Below, piece by piece: positions 8,184 to 24,615 of a stretch of DNA of 64,000 nucleotides. The stretch lies in assembly GCA_024276825.1 (NCBI GenBank), contig JAJRWI010000010.1:128001-192000 (forward strand). The letters are read 5' to 3'. The stretch comes from an archaeon (GTDB lineage Archaea; Asgardarchaeota; Thorarchaeia; Thorarchaeales; Thorarchaeaceae). Made by a program: the position numbers and the translations under genes. The notes beneath the pieces were generated by a model. It was given only the letters and a program-made list of their open reading frames with translations. It searched no databases and had not been told where the DNA came from. Numbering within the stretch: position 1 is the stretch's first letter; every line of letters starts with the position of its first letter.

Positions 8184-8987
8184 ATGGGAGTCTTAACATA
8201 TCTTCTCAGTGAGAGGAAGGAACACCAAAGGGAAGAACCGATGTACCTGCGAGTCCAATCAGAACTCTACGCATCAATAGCCACACTTGACAGACTGAAG
8301 AAGATGTATAATGTGGGGGTAGTTGACCCAAGGTCTTTTCAGCGAGAGTCTGAGGCCCTGATGATGGACGTGCAGGAACGTATTTCTGAGATGCGCAGGA
8401 TGGGAGTGGATTTCGGATCATTTCTCATGAATGAACGGATCATGGATGCCTTTCCTGATGCTGTGGAGATGCTTGGTATTCGTGGACCCAGTCAGACGCC
8501 TATTCAGAGAGGAATGACCAGAGAAGAGTATTTTGACTATCTGGGGCTCGCAGTCCTTGATGTCGCCACTGCAAATGCCTCCAAGGGACTGATGAGCCTT
8601 GCTGACATGATTGTTGAGGTCTCAAAGCTGTTGCCCCACCTTAAACCAATAAATTACAACGATGTGATAGAGGCAGTTAATATAGTTTCACACCATGGAC
8701 TGATTCCTGGAATAAGAACACTGCAGTGTGGTGTAAAGGTTGTTGAACTGAGACCTCTAGAACTTCGTGGCGATCAGGCAGAGGTTGTCAACCTAGCTGC
8801 GACAAAGGGCTATACAACAGTTGAGGAAGTGATGATAGCACTCAACTGGTCGAAGGATCATGCCACTCAGGTATTGAACAGCCTTGTTGATGCAGGGATG
8901 GCTGTTGCAGATAAGAAGTACTCTACAGGCTTCAAGTATTGGTTCCCTGGCCTTCGAGCAAGAGATAATTCAGACAGAGAAGACTGA
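8184..8987 (+). CDS. ESCRT-I Vps28 N-terminal-like domain fused to ESCRT-II Vps22/36 (EAP30) winged helices; probable start 8241
   Basis: SELYASIATLDRLKKMYNVGVVDPRSFQRESEALM resembles the Vps28 N-terminal hairpin. EEYFDYLGLAVLDV...GLMSL...PLELRGDQAEVVNLA..KGYTT...W....A.QVL..LV.AGMA...YWFPGL resembles Vps22. Confidence 0.8.
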   Translation: MGVLTYLLSERKEHQREEPMYLRVQSELYASIATLDRLKKMYNVGVVDPRSFQRESEALMMDVQERISEMRRMGVDFGSFLMNERIMDAFPDAVEMLGIRGPSQTPIQRGMTREEYFDYLGLAVLDVATANASKGLMSLADMIVEVSKLLPHLKPINYNDVIEAVNIVSHHGLIPGIRTLQCGVKVVELRPLELRGDQAEVVNLAATKGYTTVEEVMIALNWSKDHATQVLNSLVDAGMAVADKKYSTGFKYWFPGLRARDNSDRED

Positions 8988-9669: not shown

Positions 9670-10854
9670 TCATGGGCCCTCCATCCATTGGTGATATCTT
9701 CGGACATCATCAGGAGATGCCATAGGGACTATCTTCTTGATTGCCCGTAGGAAGTCGTTCATACTCACAGGACGGACCTTCATCTCACCTTCAGTGCTGC
9801 TCTGACCCATTACTTCTCTTATTGGCCCCATTGCAGCTTCTCGGCAGACTATGCTCAGATCTCTTCCACTATACCATTCAGTTAGTCTGGCCAGTTCGGC
9901 ATAATCAACATCATCAGCGATTTCAACATCAGTCATATGTATACGCAGAATCTCAGCCCTCGCATTCTCATTTGGTAGGGGAACATAGATCTTTCTCTCA
10001 AATCTAGATAGTAATGCAAAATCAATCTCCCATGGAAGGTTTGTTGCTGCCACAAGGGTCACTCGTTCATTAGGAGAACTGTTTAGACCTTGTAGCTCAG
10101 TCAGCAGTTGAGTCTTCATGCGGCGCTCTCCGCCAACATCATCATTGGACCGTGTATTGCCGATGGAGTCAATCTCATCAATGAATATTATGGATGGCTG
10201 GTGTTTGCGGGCGAGCTCGAATAGTTTCATAACGAGACGTTCCGACTCACCAAGCCATTTACTGACTATATTGCCCGCTGAAACATTGAAGAATGTCGCA
10301 TTGATCTCTGATGCCACAGCTTTGACTAACAAGGTCTTTCCGGTACCGGCAGGACCATACAAGAGAATTCCACGCCATGGCTGACGGGCCTTCCCCTTGA
10401 ATAACTCGGGGTGTTTAATTGGAAAGACTATTGCCTCATAGATCGCCTGCTTGGCATCATCGAGCCCTGCGACCTCAGACATCTTGACTCCAGGACGTTC
10501 TCTTATGATTGTGTCTGCGACCATCTCGCTGAGAATTCTATCATCAGAGTCAACAGGAGATGAGTCTTGTTGTGTTGAGTCGGATTGTGACGGCAGAGCA
10601 CTGACCGAAGACTCATTATCCGTGGCAGGTCTTCTGGTTATAGCAATCACCCGCTCAACACATTCCTGTGCCCTATCATAGTATAATTGCCTGACTTTGG
10701 GTAGTGTTGAAACCCGGTAGAGTTTTAGCAGGACCTTGCTAGCGCTGATGTAGAGTCTGCAGGCCTCCTTTCTCAGACCCCTTCTATCAAGATCAATTGC
10801 TTTCTGCAGCAGGTCACGTAGACCTTCTTCTGCGTAATTATTAGGTCCTGCCAT
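9670..10854 (-). CDS. vps4: Vps4-like MIT-AAA ATPase
   Basis: N-terminal MIT helices; PWRGILLYGPAGTGKT, SKWLGESE, IFIDEID, ATNLPW. Confidence 0.92.
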   Translation of the reverse strand: MAGPNNYAEEGLRDLLQKAIDLDRRGLRKEACRLYISASKVLLKLYRVSTLPKVRQLYYDRAQECVERVIAITRRPATDNESSVSALPSQSDSTQQDSSPVDSDDRILSEMVADTIIRERPGVKMSEVAGLDDAKQAIYEAIVFPIKHPELFKGKARQPWRGILLYGPAGTGKTLLVKAVASEINATFFNVSAGNIVSKWLGESERLVMKLFELARKHQPSIIFIDEIDSIGNTRSNDDVGGERRMKTQLLTELQGLNSSPNERVTLVAATNLPWEIDFALLSRFERKIYVPLPNENARAEILRIHMTDVEIADDVDYAELARLTEWYSGRDLSIVCREAAMGPIREVMGQSSTEGEMKVRPVSMNDFLRAIKKIVPMASPDDVRRYHQWMEGP

Positions 10855-11013: not shown

Positions 11014-11643
11014 ATGCTTGGAACGGTGAGACTCTTGGGCACAATACGCAAGGCCTTTATCTGGGGAAGAAGCAAGCCGAATATCAGTGAGATAAAGAGT
11101 AGATTAAGAATTCTAGTCAGACAGCTTCAAAGGCAAAAGATGAAGCTTGATAATGAGATCTCTGCGATCAAGGCATGTGCTGTGCGTGCCCGCAAGAACG
11201 GTGATATGGAGGCCTTCAGATCATATGCAGAAGAGCTTGTAAGGTTCAGACATCTGGCACTTTCAGTTGACAAATCTAGGCTATATCTGTTAAAGATTCT
11301 CAATCATATCCAGCAGGCTCAGACAACCGCAAAGACCTCATTAGTAATGGGAGAAGTTGGCAAAATACTTGGGATCCTTGGCGATGTGACTGATGTGTCA
11401 AGAGTTGTGGCAAATGTCGATGAGATTGCACGTAGGCTTGAGGAATTTGAGATAGAGAGGGGTATTGCAAGCACATCAATAGACTCGGCTACGAGCAGTA
11501 TTAGGCCAGATGAAGTAGCACGGACGATGGGTGAGATAGAGGCAATTGCAGGCATGTCGTCCGATAAGAGAATGTCAGCTGGTTCAGAAGCCGATTCACT
11601 TGAGGCCACAATAAGAGCTCTTGAACAAGAGCTCGATGTCTAG
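11014..11643 (+). CDS. ESCRT-III (Snf7-fold, Vps2/24/46-like)
   Basis: Basic N-terminal helical hairpin (A..ARKNGDMEAFRSYAEELVR), acidic C-terminal half, terminal MIM1-like DSLEATIRALEQEL; divergent from vps4. Confidence 0.85.
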   Translation: MLGTVRLLGTIRKAFIWGRSKPNISEIKSRLRILVRQLQRQKMKLDNEISAIKACAVRARKNGDMEAFRSYAEELVRFRHLALSVDKSRLYLLKILNHIQQAQTTAKTSLVMGEVGKILGILGDVTDVSRVVANVDEIARRLEEFEIERGIASTSIDSATSSIRPDEVARTMGEIEAIAGMSSDKRMSAGSEADSLEATIRALEQELDV

Positions 11644-11663: not shown

Positions 11664-13232
11664 TTACCAATTGGAGTATTGGCCATGGGCAGATGCCCCA
11701 TTAATCTGATGACGAAGTTCGTAGAGTTCTCTCATGAGAATCCTGTGCCTTCTGGTGAAGTCTTCAGGAACAAGACGCCCCTCTCTGAACATGCGAACTG
11801 TGTCATCCAGTGCTATCTCAATCTCTGAGAGTTTACGTTGAATCTCTTCAATTCTATTGCTATCGTGATTGAGGTTTCCCATCATGAATCGATCAGAGCC
11901 AGTGGCAAATGTTCTGTCCAACTCCTGTTTGTAGGAGTATGGCGAGTAATCCTGTTGGTTATGCTCCATGAATGGACTTGTGGAATAATGTGGACCATCA
12001 AACATTACAGGATTTGGCGGTGGATATGAATGAGGGGATATTGTCTGAAACCGACCAGATAGTAGAGCATGAACAAGACTATCAATCTTGATTCGAACAT
12101 CCTCAATGTTAACGCTCTTCTGTTCGAGCTTACGCACCCGCTGAAGGTCCGTTTGAACATATCTACTAAAATTGCGTGCGATCTCGACAAAATCAGGCAT
12201 GACTTTCATTGTCTGCTCACTGCAGAGAATCTTGATCATGCCTTGTTTGAACCTCATCACTATGCGTTTTCTGAATCGTCCGTCTTCCTCAAATGATTTG
12301 AAGTATTGAAGTGGAAACTCGAACACAATATCGGTCTTCTTACGTACTCGGCCTGTTTCAGCTATGAATACCAGTCTTCGATTTGTGACGTATAGAGTGC
12401 CAAGTGCTTTATCATTCTTTAGAAAATCACTTCCAACAATGCGTATGTCTGAGAATGCACATACCGGGAGTTCGTTGACTGAGAGCTCGGCATACTCGTA
12501 AAATCCACAGAACTGATTGCGATAATAGTTCAGGCCATCAAGCTGGCGATCGATTTCTGCAATGACCTTTTGAATTGGTTCGATTGTGTCATTAATTGCT
12601 TTCTTGTACTGCTTGCATATCTCACTGACTCTATGAGCCACACCCTCGATGAATGGAAATTGAGAGGGCACCCATTGATTATGATTCATTAACCCCTTAG
12701 TTTCAGCAGCAAGGCGTTTTGCAATGATCTCGACCTGATTACTTATCCTGTTCTTGGCAGCAACAATATTCTCATGGCACTCCTCAATCTTGTCCTCCAG
12801 CCATTTATAGTGCAGAAAGCTTGACATCCTAAGAGAAACCAAGAGCTGCTTTGCAGAGTGAATCCGATTACTTGTTTCACGCAATTTGGTATGACCATAG
12901 TGAATCTCCATGATTGCATGACGCATCTCTTGTGCAAGGTCACGTCGTTTCTCTTCAATCAGTACTATACGGACTGAATGGCAGTTGGGGCAGATGTTGT
13001 CAATACGTTTGCCAGTACTAAGGCGATCTGACCCACACTCGGGGCATGATTCGAAGGTTTCGCCTGGCTCTGGGACTCCTAGGGAATGGTGGCAATTAGT
13101 GCACAAATAATACTCACTGTTTCGCGACTCCAGACAATCCACGCAGAGTATAGTTCCGCAGTCTTCACACATATGTGTGGCCCGGTTCTTATCACATATG
13201 CTGCATCGGGATGAGTTTGGATCAGCTGTCAT
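11664..13232 (-). CDS. B-box/Zn-ribbon, coiled-coil, GRAM/PH-like and C-terminal steadiness-box (Vps23/37-like) protein
   Basis: CSICDKNRATHMCEDCGTILCVDC; further CxxC pairs; GTLYVTNRRLVF; IEIALDDTVRMFREGRLVPEDFTRRHRILMRELYELR. Confidence 0.75.
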   Translation of the reverse strand: MTADPNSSRCSICDKNRATHMCEDCGTILCVDCLESRNSEYYLCTNCHHSLGVPEPGETFESCPECGSDRLSTGKRIDNICPNCHSVRIVLIEEKRRDLAQEMRHAIMEIHYGHTKLRETSNRIHSAKQLLVSLRMSSFLHYKWLEDKIEECHENIVAAKNRISNQVEIIAKRLAAETKGLMNHNQWVPSQFPFIEGVAHRVSEICKQYKKAINDTIEPIQKVIAEIDRQLDGLNYYRNQFCGFYEYAELSVNELPVCAFSDIRIVGSDFLKNDKALGTLYVTNRRLVFIAETGRVRKKTDIVFEFPLQYFKSFEEDGRFRKRIVMRFKQGMIKILCSEQTMKVMPDFVEIARNFSRYVQTDLQRVRKLEQKSVNIEDVRIKIDSLVHALLSGRFQTISPHSYPPPNPVMFDGPHYSTSPFMEHNQQDYSPYSYKQELDRTFATGSDRFMMGNLNHDSNRIEEIQRKLSEIEIALDDTVRMFREGRLVPEDFTRRHRILMRELYELRHQINGASAHGQYSNW

Positions 13233-22342: not shown

Positions 22343-23275
22343 ATGCATGATAACCATGGGAACACGTTATCCATGTCATTATTCAGGCACACTAATCTTA
22401 TTTTGAAATACGTTTCTGATTATTCGAGGTCGCGATATAGTTTGTCAAATTCACGGTTGATACTCGGAGTCTGGCTGATAGAGAGAAGTTCAGGAAAGAA
22501 CCTGATATCTCTGACATTTACAGACGTCGAGATAGACATGGACCTGTTTGCTCCATTCCTGTCAGCCACAAAGTTTCTCATTGACACCGCGTCATCCGAG
22601 TCCCTTGAGATGATAAACACGGAAGGGCGGCGGTATGTATGGCATTCCAATGACTGGTTCTTGATTGTCTTAGCAATATCAAAGAGAGCACGTGTTGCAC
22701 ATATGCGATTTCTACTCAATTATGCCCTGAATGAGTTCATGAATAAGGCCATTCCCTCAAACACATCTGTGGACGAGTTCTTGCGTAAATGGGATGGCAC
22801 TCCGCGTCCATTTAGAGAGTATGAGGATTTCCTCAGAGTGCTCATTGACCAATTCGAGCAGACCGATGAATCATTATTGGCGGGGAAGGCCATGGACTGC
22901 TTAGCAGTATACAGCCACATCTTTACGGCAATTCTGAGAACCAATATGAAAGATGACACTCGTGAAAAACTTGTGTCTAGAATAAGAGAAGAGCTGGGAA
23001 ACCTCATCAAGGATGACTCGGCATTCAAGGGAATTCTCATTGATAAGAGGGGAATTGATGTTCTATCCATTAATCCAACTATGTGCTCGTATAAAGTTCT
23101 CCGAACAAGACTTGACCAGATCCTTGAGATTGTTTCAAACATCGCCAAAGACCTAATCCCTAAAAGAGACTACAATAAAATGCTCTTGGAGCAGCTCATA
23201 CCATACATGAAAAGGGATATTGACCGTTTGGAAACCTATTCCATTCTGGATGACATTATCCGTCTGGTCTTCTAG
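22343..23275 (+). CDS. Longin-like domain protein with helical C-terminal extension (start probably ~22457)
   Basis: GVWLIERSSGKNLI...DMDLFAPFLSA...WDG...FREYEDFL, a pattern typical of Asgard longin domains. Confidence 0.6.
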   Translation: MHDNHGNTLSMSLFRHTNLILKYVSDYSRSRYSLSNSRLILGVWLIERSSGKNLISLTFTDVEIDMDLFAPFLSATKFLIDTASSESLEMINTEGRRYVWHSNDWFLIVLAISKRARVAHMRFLLNYALNEFMNKAIPSNTSVDEFLRKWDGTPRPFREYEDFLRVLIDQFEQTDESLLAGKAMDCLAVYSHIFTAILRTNMKDDTREKLVSRIREELGNLIKDDSAFKGILIDKRGIDVLSINPTMCSYKVLRTRLDQILEIVSNIAKDLIPKRDYNKMLLEQLIPYMKRDIDRLETYSILDDIIRLVF

Positions 23276-24615
23276 ACTTTCGCAAGCATTATGACCTCTC
23301 TCTGAACAATCTGGCCCCGCTTACGCTCATAGATACGTAATCGGTTGGGCGATATCTTTAGTCGGTCATCAGTAATCTTCTCGCTGTGAAATGCCCTTTC
23401 GGGCAATAAGTATTGAACACTAAGATCAGTATTCTTCACAAGCTGGTCGAGATTGAGTGTGACCTGTCCATCATCAGAATTGATTGCAGGAATTGTCATA
23501 CTGATGCGCCCACCAGGCTTCAACCGTTTTTCGAGTGCCTGCAATGTGGAAGTATAGAGCTCTGTCAACTCACGAATCTGTTTCTCGGCAGCGGTCCTCG
23601 TAGGAGGGCTATCATATAATGGTCCAAGGTCTGGCTCGAAGGCAATAGCATCAACATCAAAGGGTATTATGCGATCTGCATCTCGGGCGTCACCAAGAAG
23701 AATTGTAAAGTCAAAGCGCTGACCCATCTCATGTCCCAGCCACTTTAGGTTAGATATTGCACCTTGTACCACATCAGGATTGATATCGATTCCAACACAT
23801 TTCATGTCTAAAAGTGCCGCTTCCATCAGGAGTGTGCCAGTACCACAGAATGGGTCAAGGACCGTATCACCAGCACGTGCACCAGCAAGACTCAATAGAG
23901 TTCGACATAGTTTGGGACTTGTACTAATGCCTGCTGAAATGTAAGGCCTTGCCTCGTCCCTAAATTGCTGTAGTTGGGAGTCGTAGACAGCACGGCTTTT
24001 TGCAAGATATAATGAGGTTTCAGTAAACACTGCTAGGATCTCTGCATTTGGCGGTGTCAGGAGATTATGTCGTGCGATGGTTGCAGGCCAGAGGGCGGTA
24101 TTGGGCCTGCTCGCATTTCTTCTGTCGGGCTCTTCATACGCGTAGTACACTGCCTTCTTGGCGCCCATCTGAACCAGTTTCTGCTTAATCCATTCATCCA
24201 TACCTAATGTGAACCTCTTGAGGTCAATACGTGGGGCTGATGGTATTGAGGGATATGAACTCACTCCGAATTTGATTCGCTTTCCTGAAACTCTTCTCCA
24301 TACATTATCAACCCAGTTGCATTCTCTCAGGGCCAGTCTTGCATTCTTTCTTATGCGACCCTGTTTGGGAAACGCATTCCTTGCAATCTTTACATCATAC
24401 TGTTTCACAACATGTCCTATCTTGAAACACCCGCCGAGAGAGGCCTGTATATCAATGAGTTCCTCACCGCTGAGAGTAGATGTTGTTCTCACAATTGCTG
24501 CTGTTCTAGAGTGGTCCACAATCTCTTCAAACACACCACGATCATCTAGGCGAACTATCAGTTCAGCAATGCTAAGCAACCAATTCTTTCCAAGTATAAA
24601 GACATACAGACTCAT
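23272..24615 (-). CDS. Trm11/TrmG10-like SAM-dependent RNA methyltransferase
   Basis: STSPKLCRTL, VLDPFCGTGT, GIDIN, GDAR, FEPDLG. Confidence 0.75.
   Translation of the reverse strand: MSLYVFILGKNWLLSIAELIVRLDDRGVFEEIVDHSRTAAIVRTTSTLSGEELIDIQASLGGCFKIGHVVKQYDVKIARNAFPKQGRIRKNARLALRECNWVDNVWRRVSGKRIKFGVSSYPSIPSAPRIDLKRFTLGMDEWIKQKLVQMGAKKAVYYAYEEPDRRNASRPNTALWPATIARHNLLTPPNAEILAVFTETSLYLAKSRAVYDSQLQQFRDEARPYISAGISTSPKLCRTLLSLAGARAGDTVLDPFCGTGTLLMEAALLDMKCVGIDINPDVVQGAISNLKWLGHEMGQRFDFTILLGDARDADRIIPFDVDAIAFEPDLGPLYDSPPTRTAAEKQIRELTELYTSTLQALEKRLKPGGRISMTIPAINSDDGQVTLNLDQLVKNTDLSVQYLLPERAFHSEKITDDRLKISPNRLRIYERKRGQIVQREVIMLAKV

Follow-up and report, generated by a model that had tools for sequence, protein, structure and literature searches.

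A Vps22 protein of Thorarchaeales carries the N-terminal domain of Vps28 in place of its usual N-terminal helices

[quoted passage not shown] A single gene of a Thorarchaeales archaeon bears on this question. The window that we analysed is a stretch of 64,000 nucleotides (GenBank assembly GCA_024276825.1, contig JAJRWI010000010.1, positions 128,001 to 192,000), which is C81:128001-192000 of the host genome (G000), a 2.9-Mb metagenome-type assembly of 82 contigs that is 98.3% complete. A first-pass annotation of its open reading frames (ORFs) had read one of them, P0001, as the N-terminal domain of Vps28 joined to the tandem winged helix of Vps22, and had proposed that ESCRT-I and ESCRT-II are thereby hard-wired to each other. 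Is the N-terminal part of this protein truly a piece of Vps28, how did it come to be attached to Vps22, and what would it bind? Our answer, which we hold to be quite probable, is that P0001 is a Thorarchaeales Vps22 in which a complete Vps28 N-terminal domain (Vps28-N) has taken the place of the N-terminal helices, that this protein arose by deletion and fusion, and that it couples ESCRT-I to ESCRT-II by docking on a steadiness box (SB).

In eukaryotes, Vps28-N is a hairpin of the ESCRT-I headpiece that binds the steadiness box of the Vps23 type. Residues ~20-103 of P0001 are a genuine Vps28-N domain, as several independent comparisons indicate. An exhaustive phmmer search, with the whole of P0001 as query against 1.84 billion protein representatives, reached P0205, P0232, P0235 and P0249 through the N-terminal part alone (E 4.7e-8, 2.7e-6, 3.7e-6 and 1.5e-5; query residues 16-103, or 16-156 for one of them). 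All four, one of which is annotated as Odinarchaeia, lie above the Pfam VPS28 cut-off, with 44-58 bits over the whole model. The N-termini of P0001 and its Thorarchaeales orthologues align almost without gaps with Asgard Vps28 N-domains over ~85 residues, and the two groups have in common the motifs E-L-Y-A-x-I-A-T-L-D, G-x-[VI]-D-x4-[FY]-x-R and G-x-D-x3-F-x3-E-x-I-x3-F-P. The first of these, E-L-Y-A-S-I-A-T-L-D in P0001, is the most highly conserved motif of its Vps28-N domain. A hidden Markov model (HMM) based on the N-domains alone of 30 canonical Vps28 proteins from other Asgard lineages, and therefore free of Thorarchaeales sequences, matched P0001 alone among the 19,801 six-frame ORFs of the host genome (residues 22-99, E 1e-16, 60.9 bits). 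Profile comparison with hhalign gave 99.6% probability between the Thorarchaeales domain and Asgard Vps28-N (E 2.5e-24, 81 columns). Applied in the opposite direction, an HMM of the Thorarchaeales domain matched Vps28 at 30 of 30 canonical vps28 loci outside this order (E 1e-12 to 1e-22), and never Vps22.

The predicted fold agrees with this assignment. An AlphaFold2 (AF2) model of residues 20-112 has a predicted local distance difference test score (pLDDT) of 87, and it shows short helices after a helical hairpin, the arrangement known from the solved structures of Vps28-N. When this model was compared by Foldseek with the PDB, as the first-pass annotation had advised, the nine best matches were all Vps28-N chains, namely human 6vme U/V/W/X/Y and yeast 2f6m_B/D and 2caz_B/E (TM score 0.62-0.74, probability 1.00, E 0.08-0.17). 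The root-mean-square deviation over 79-83 columns is 1.7-2.8 A for the 6vme and 2f6m chains and 5.6-5.8 A for the two 2caz chains, and hairpins of the Vps23 type rank far lower. The Vps28-like segment that had been suspected at residues ~20-95 is thus borne out by sequence searches, profile comparison and fold alike.

The remainder of the protein is equally clear. Residues 113-253 are the tandem winged helix of Vps22/EAP30, again as first proposed: Pfam EAP30 (PF04157) matches residues 89-244 (E 1e-12, 48.8 bits against a cut-off of 26.8), human Vps22/SNF8 (3cuq_A) aligns with residues 116-257 (E 3e-11), and the best Foldseek matches of the full-length model are the Vps22 chains 3cuq_A (E 7e-10), 2zme_A and 1u5t_A (E values ranging to 4e-7), followed by Vps36. 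Because these winged helices stand where Vps28 has its C-terminal four-helix bundle, P0001 carries a Vps28 domain but is not a Vps28. The EAP30 match spans profile positions 58-219 and leaves positions 1-57 unmatched, in keeping with the earlier view that the usual helical N-terminus of Vps22 is missing. The full-length AF2 model (pLDDT 89.7, predicted TM score 0.61) arranges the chain as the hairpin, three short helices that extend to residue 97, a linker of low confidence at 98-112 (mean pLDDT 58 at residues 101-110) and the winged helices WH1 and WH2. Residues 89-105 (positions 8448-8498, including E-R-I-M-D-A-F-P-D-A-V-E-M-L) form the last short helices of Vps28-N and are also overlapped by the start of the EAP30 match (profile 58-85). 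Since both profiles cover this segment, the fusion junction sits where the protein resembles both of its parents.

Two doubts about the identity of the protein deserve consideration. It could be supposed that the N-terminal segment is nothing other than the helical N-terminus that Asgard Vps22/36 normally has, or a generic helical hairpin with no specific kinship to Vps28. The segment does occupy the position of the N-terminal helices of other Vps22 proteins, MAFFT places the two in the same columns, Pfam VPS28 remains below its cut-off for P0001, and the corresponding helices of the Heimdallarchaeota protein have been treated as part of Vps22 (Hatano et al., 2022). However, an alignment of 37 relatives separates into two distinct N-terminal types, one with the Vps28-like motif in Thorarchaeales and an ordinary one that starts M-G-L-R-x-I-E and is common to other Asgard proteins and to eukaryote-looking sequences. 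By hhalign, neither candidate relative resembles the ordinary N-terminus, for which the probability is 0.4% against Vps28-N and 0.7% against the Thorarchaeales domain. Because the ordinary type is unlike both, the Thorarchaeales N-terminus is a replacement and not a diverged version of the ordinary one. Together with the selective Vps28 matches of the reciprocal HMM, the phmmer E values down to 5e-8 and the fold search, this leaves the supposition refuted, and the two findings that the first-pass annotation had named as fatal to its proposal, a segment without Vps28 matches or one that aligns with the ordinary Asgard N-terminus, did not materialise. A chimera of two genes created by assembly or gene calling would be conceivable in a metagenome-type assembly of this many contigs. 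Against it, the same single ORF recurs in 27 further sampled genomes (one of these copies has a TGA within the matched frame) and in over 100 protein clusters of independent origin, and we regard this explanation as even more firmly refuted.

How widely is this architecture distributed? We compared a profile of 11 fusion proteins with 151 Asgard genomes, a survey that had likewise been called for at the outset. A full-length match is present in the host genome, in all 26 other genomes of its family and in the sole genome (G108) of a sister family. Outside these two families none of the sampled genomes gave a full-length match, and the winged-helix part alone matches there. HMMs of both domains match one single ORF at 12 of 12 Thorarchaeales loci examined and in G108. 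Among the sampled Asgard genomes, then, the fusion occurs in Thorarchaeales and in no other order. The most distant fusion protein that we found, P0124, was considered as a third fusion-bearing lineage and rejected, as it is 88% identical to the G108 protein. Matches from profile positions 18-38 in other families were likewise rejected as further fusions, the G034 protein having an ordinary Vps22 N-terminus.

The gene order of other Asgard lineages suggests a route by which the fusion could have arisen. At 28 of 30 loci outside Thorarchaeales, vps22 lies directly downstream of a canonical vps28 on the same strand. The gap between the two genes at these loci (L007-L036) is ~20-350 bp or is replaced by a small overlap, and a third ORF of 245-270 residues often lies upstream of vps28. 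This adjacency suggests an origin by deletion and fusion, and the simplest reading is most likely a single in-frame deletion in the stem of Thorarchaeales. Such an event in the adjacent genes would have taken out Vps28-C together with the intergenic spacer and the N-terminal helices of Vps22. Most genomes of the host family (G069, G112, G128 and others) also encode a protein of ~780-850 residues that is matched at its C-terminus by the Vps22 WH1-WH2 profile (E 1e-22 to 1e-28); the host genome gave no match of this kind at E <= 0.001.

With the Thorarchaeales-free HMM, no free Vps28 was detectable among the six-frame ORFs of the host genome, and an Asgard Vps28-C HMM found no match in this genome at E <= 10. 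Of the 151 Asgard genomes, 101 have a Pfam VPS28 match above the cut-off, compared with 0 of the 27 genomes of the host family, where the weak matches include the fusion proteins themselves. Searches of the host genome with the Pfam UEV and ubiquitin models gave no match at E <= 1, so the ESCRT cluster appears to run without a ubiquitin system. This agrees with published statements that Thorarchaeia are without ubiquitin genes and UEV-Vps23 (Hatano et al., 2022; bioRxiv 10.1101/2023.07.25.550441).

What would Vps28-N bind when the rest of Vps28 is gone? The likely ESCRT-I-like partner is P0121, a protein of the same five-gene cluster with a putative SB at its C-terminus. We modelled the complex of P0121 residues 448-522 with P0001 residues 20-112, each supplied as an alignment, in three runs, thus carrying out the complex modelling that the first-pass annotation had recommended for this pair. 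The N-terminal domain was placed on the SB with an interface score (ipSAE) of 0.82, compared with 0.18 for the best control; among solved complexes, 58 of 80 reach the mark set for this score, as do 2 of 110 mismatched pairs. Contacts agree between runs to at least 94%, and the pLDDT of the partners is at least 82. In the model, P0001 residues 22-59, which include the conserved motif at 27-36, contact P0121 residues 479-508, on or beside F492, R494 and L499, which are invariant in the alignment of P0121 orthologues. An interaction between an SB protein and Vps22 of Lokiarchaeota has been observed by yeast two-hybrid (Hatano et al., 2022). The genes for the two proteins also travel together, as the locus tags of their orthologues are four or five steps apart in five Thorarchaeota genomes, and the pairing appears to be conserved across Thorarchaeota. 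The possibility that the N-domain of P0001 and the C-terminus of P0121 are close paralogues was rejected, since BLASTP found no similarity.

From these results we infer a possible order of assembly. Vps28-N of P0001 would dock on the C-terminal SB of P0121, which would supply recognition of membrane or cargo. The tethered WH1-WH2 core of P0001 would then recruit Vps25, which in turn would recruit ESCRT-III (Snf7) and Vps4. WH2 of eukaryotic Vps22 binds Vps25 (PMC10936438). The non-covalent bridge between Vps28-C and Vps36 of eukaryotes would thus have been exchanged for a peptide linker, in a lineage without ubiquitin, UEV-Vps23 or a free Vps28. The proposal of a hard-wired ESCRT-I/II is plausible, and it gains support from the failure to detect either free Vps28 or canonical Vps28-C and from the predicted docking on an SB, while the binding itself stands as a modelled interaction.

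Other functions of the domain have been weighed against docking on P0121. It is unlikely, in our estimation, that Vps28-N serves mainly in self-association of the fusion protein, taking over the contacts between the N-terminal helices of Vps22 and Vps36, instead of binding an SB. Such a role would accord with the self-interaction of Thorarchaeota Vps22 in yeast two-hybrid assays and with the cross-linking of Heimdallarchaeota Vps22, where one dimer surface lies in N-helix residues 41-47, within the region replaced here (Hatano et al., 2022). The observed self-interaction could also run through the winged-helix domains, however, and the confident model of the heterocomplex with the P0121 SB puts the interface on the domain's most conserved surface. 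Moreover, we know of no case in which Vps28-N homodimerises, and self-association and SB binding are not mutually exclusive roles. Marginally less probable still is a functional fusion whose SB partner is another hairpin protein, or that joins a three-hairpin headpiece together with a third subunit. In its favour, the HMM of the P0121 SB also matches an ORF of 132 residues elsewhere in the host genome (C24:97582-97977, minus strand, E 8.9e-6), and eukaryotic headpieces are three-hairpin assemblies (PMC10936438). Yet P0121 is the sole protein of this kind in the conserved five-gene cluster, and the binary model already scores highly. A protein resembling GIFT/IFT52, encoded ~2.8 kb upstream of the window (C81:124053-125222, minus strand), has a long coiled-coil tail that ends in a hairpin of helix, S-G-A-I-S-K-D-N-Y and helix. 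It was considered as a third member of the headpiece and set aside, having escaped detection by the SB HMM at E <= 10.

We return to docking of Vps28-N on the P0121 SB, and to the deletion-fusion origin, to consider the points that weigh against them. Pfam VPS28 aligns P0001 residues 26-80 (in a search with residues 1-115) with positions 2-58 of its 188 at E 0.06-0.1, and the score of 12.8-13.5 bits misses the gathering score of 24.5 bits. Such a shortfall is expected of a protein that has just the first third of the model, and the sister-family orthologue in G108 reaches 24.6 bits. The contact between P0001 and P0121 comes from a structural model, and, because complexes of Vps23-SB with Vps28-N have been solved (2F6M, 2CAZ, 6VME), a pass in this modelling speaks for likeness to them and is not proof of binding. 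The SB of P0121 is assigned from sub-threshold Pfam matches and the literature and is hence a putative one. The single deletion is deduced from gene order in other lineages and not from an ancestral reconstruction.

The loss of Vps28-C is also less than certain. BAR-Vps28 fusions have been described in Thorarchaeia (Eme et al., 2023), and Vps28-C may therefore survive elsewhere. A conserved Thorarchaeota coiled-coil protein of 410 residues (L001:841-2073, minus strand, corresponding to contig C56 ~22671-23903 of the host genome) gave a weak match in the genome-wide search with Pfam VPS28, and may be one of these fusions. In a profile search of the PDB it matched Vps28-C (2j9w_A) at E 0.005 over residues 109-190, with annexin scoring equally, and Pfam VPS28 is sub-threshold in four of five orthologues (best E 0.0023). 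By hhalign, its probability against the full-length, N-terminal and C-terminal profiles of Asgard Vps28 is below 1%, and a search of the ESM Atlas returned unnamed clusters alone. We have not used this protein as evidence for either case.

The architecture itself is known, and we do not present it as a discovery. The first-pass annotation knew of no characterisation of it, a view that the literature overturns. Asgard Vps22 has been stated to be fused to an SB (Makarova et al., 2024, mBio; PMC10936438), and Table S3 of that work lists residues 1-70 of a Thorarchaeota Vps22, KXH75178.1, as PF03997, with the entries 99 and 'VPS28 protein (N-terminal domain - SB)'. This protein has the same architecture as P0001 and by all appearance belongs to the same orthologous family. 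The P0001 orthologue ThorAB25_09030, labelled 'Vps22', has been used in yeast two-hybrid assays, beside the P0121 orthologue ThorAB25_08990, labelled 'SB', and its printed sequence begins with the same motif (Hatano et al., 2022). The published account differs from ours in its breadth, since it extends the fusion to the entire Asgard Vps22 family (cog.002769, including the Heimdallarchaeota Vps22), whereas we find it in one order. What we add is this limit to one order, the finding that Vps28-N has no kinship with the ordinary N-terminus of Vps22, an origin suggested by gene neighbours, the absence of a detectable free Vps28, and a testable interface with a partner.

When P0001 is set beside its eukaryotic and archaeal counterparts, the nature of the rearrangement becomes clearer. 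Its N-domain is homologous in sequence and fold to that of eukaryotic and Asgard Vps28 (PF03997; 2F6M, 2CAZ, 6VME), and in the model its helix 1 and the first part of helix 2 pack against a hairpin of the Vps23 type. However, the C-terminal four-helix bundle through which Vps28 contacts ESCRT-II is absent, and the core of ESCRT-II itself stands in its place. P0001 shares this tandem winged-helix core with eukaryotic Vps22/SNF8/EAP30 and with ordinary Asgard Vps22 (PF04157; 3CUQ, 1U5T), at 22-23% identity with human Vps22; it differs in lacking the N-terminal helical region, and is encoded beside Vps25, Vps4 and ESCRT-III. Unlike eukaryotic ESCRT-II, the system has no Vps36 paralogue with a GLUE domain, and a PH/GLUE-like domain and zinc ribbons are found on P0121 instead. 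The UEV-Vps23-Vps28 fusion of Heimdallarchaeia (Hatano et al., 2022; bioRxiv 10.1101/2023.07.25.550441) similarly unites in one chain ESCRT subunits that are separate in eukaryotes. That fusion remains within ESCRT-I and retains the whole of Vps28, whereas P0001 crosses the boundary that separates ESCRT-I from ESCRT-II with Vps28-N alone.

Taken one step further, these comparisons lead to a more general proposal, to which we give somewhat better than even odds. Thorarchaeales may possess a ubiquitin-independent upstream ESCRT module of two polypeptides, created by one deletion, in which a subunit with zinc ribbons, a PH domain and an SB is coupled directly to the Vps22 winged-helix core through the contact between Vps28-N and the SB; the generalisation of an SB-Vps22 fusion to all Asgard archaea would then be over-extended. 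Coupling through a peptide bond makes for a simple reconstitution target, with two proteins in place of the usual five or six. Such a lineage also offers a natural test of whether function depends on the interface between Vps28-C and Vps36 and, if the proposal is true, it would be a natural minimal system for learning what this bridge adds in eukaryotes.

The coordinates of the fusion gene, its domains and its neighbours are collected in Table 1. The homologues of P0001 are mostly 245-253 residues long and start at the equivalent of M20 (120 Thorarchaeota homologues listed), and for this reason its own start is probably at M20 as well. The nearest homologues are annotated as Candidatus Thorarchaeota.

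Table 1. Fusion gene P0001, its domains and the surrounding ESCRT genes (positions in the window)
Feature	Position	Strand	Basis or description
P0001, Vps28N-Vps22 fusion ORF	8184..8987	+	267 residues, open frame; probable true start M20 at 8241
Vps28 N-terminal domain, residues 20-103	8241..8492	+	helical hairpin H20-43/H49-72 and short helices H77-97
Flexible linker, residues 104-112, junction of Vps28-derived and Vps22-derived parts	8493..8519	+	low model confidence; variable in alignments
Winged helix 1 (WH1), Vps22/EAP30 core, residues 113-188	8520..8747	+	Pfam EAP30, 3cuq_A, AF2, Foldseek
Winged helix 2 (WH2), Vps22/EAP30 core, residues 196-253	8769..8942	+	Pfam EAP30, 3cuq_A, AF2, Foldseek
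Vps25 (ESCRT-II), 225 residues	8989..9666	-	Pfam ESCRT-II PF05871, E 4e-11, residues 88-174
Vps4 AAA ATPase with MIT domain	9670..10854	-	Pfam AAA 1.4e-41, MIT, Vps4_C
ESCRT-III (Snf7 family) subunit	11014..11643	+	Pfam Snf7, E 1e-10
P0121, Znr_CC_PH_SB protein, 522 residues	11664..13232	-	weak recurrent Pfam matches, literature family
Putative P0121 steadiness-box hairpin, residues 457-522	11667..11864	-	alignment consensus resembling Vps23-type SB

The five genes of the cluster lie between those for aspartyl-tRNA synthetase and a TldD/PmbA peptidase. P0121 belongs to the Znr_CC_PH_SB family of Makarova et al. (2024; PMC10936438) and is composed of three zinc ribbons or a B-box, a coiled coil, a PH/GLUE-like domain and the C-terminal SB. 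Weak Pfam matches recur among 25 of its orthologues, with DZR in 18, bPH_3 in 16, Mod_r in 7, Vps23_core in 4 and Vps36 GLUE in 3. In this protein, features of the N-terminal half of Vps36 (zinc fingers and a PH domain resembling GLUE) are mixed with a stalk and SB like those of Vps23. Its conservation among Thorarchaeota is high, and it has 166 relatives at E <= 0.001. Beyond the C24 ORF, the P0121 SB HMM gave further matches in the host genome at C73:92195-92413 (plus strand, E 0.02) and C33:43877-44479 (plus strand, E 0.05). These three small ORFs have the form of a hairpin of helix, G-x-I-x3-E-[FY]-x-R-x-Y and helix, and could be free-standing SB-like or SHOCT-like proteins. Vps25 is present in a single copy in the host genome. 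It has an N-terminal extension of ~87 residues that is charged and proline-rich and has no Pfam match, and extra N-terminal subdomains have been mentioned for Asgard Vps25 (Makarova et al., 2024; PMC10936438).

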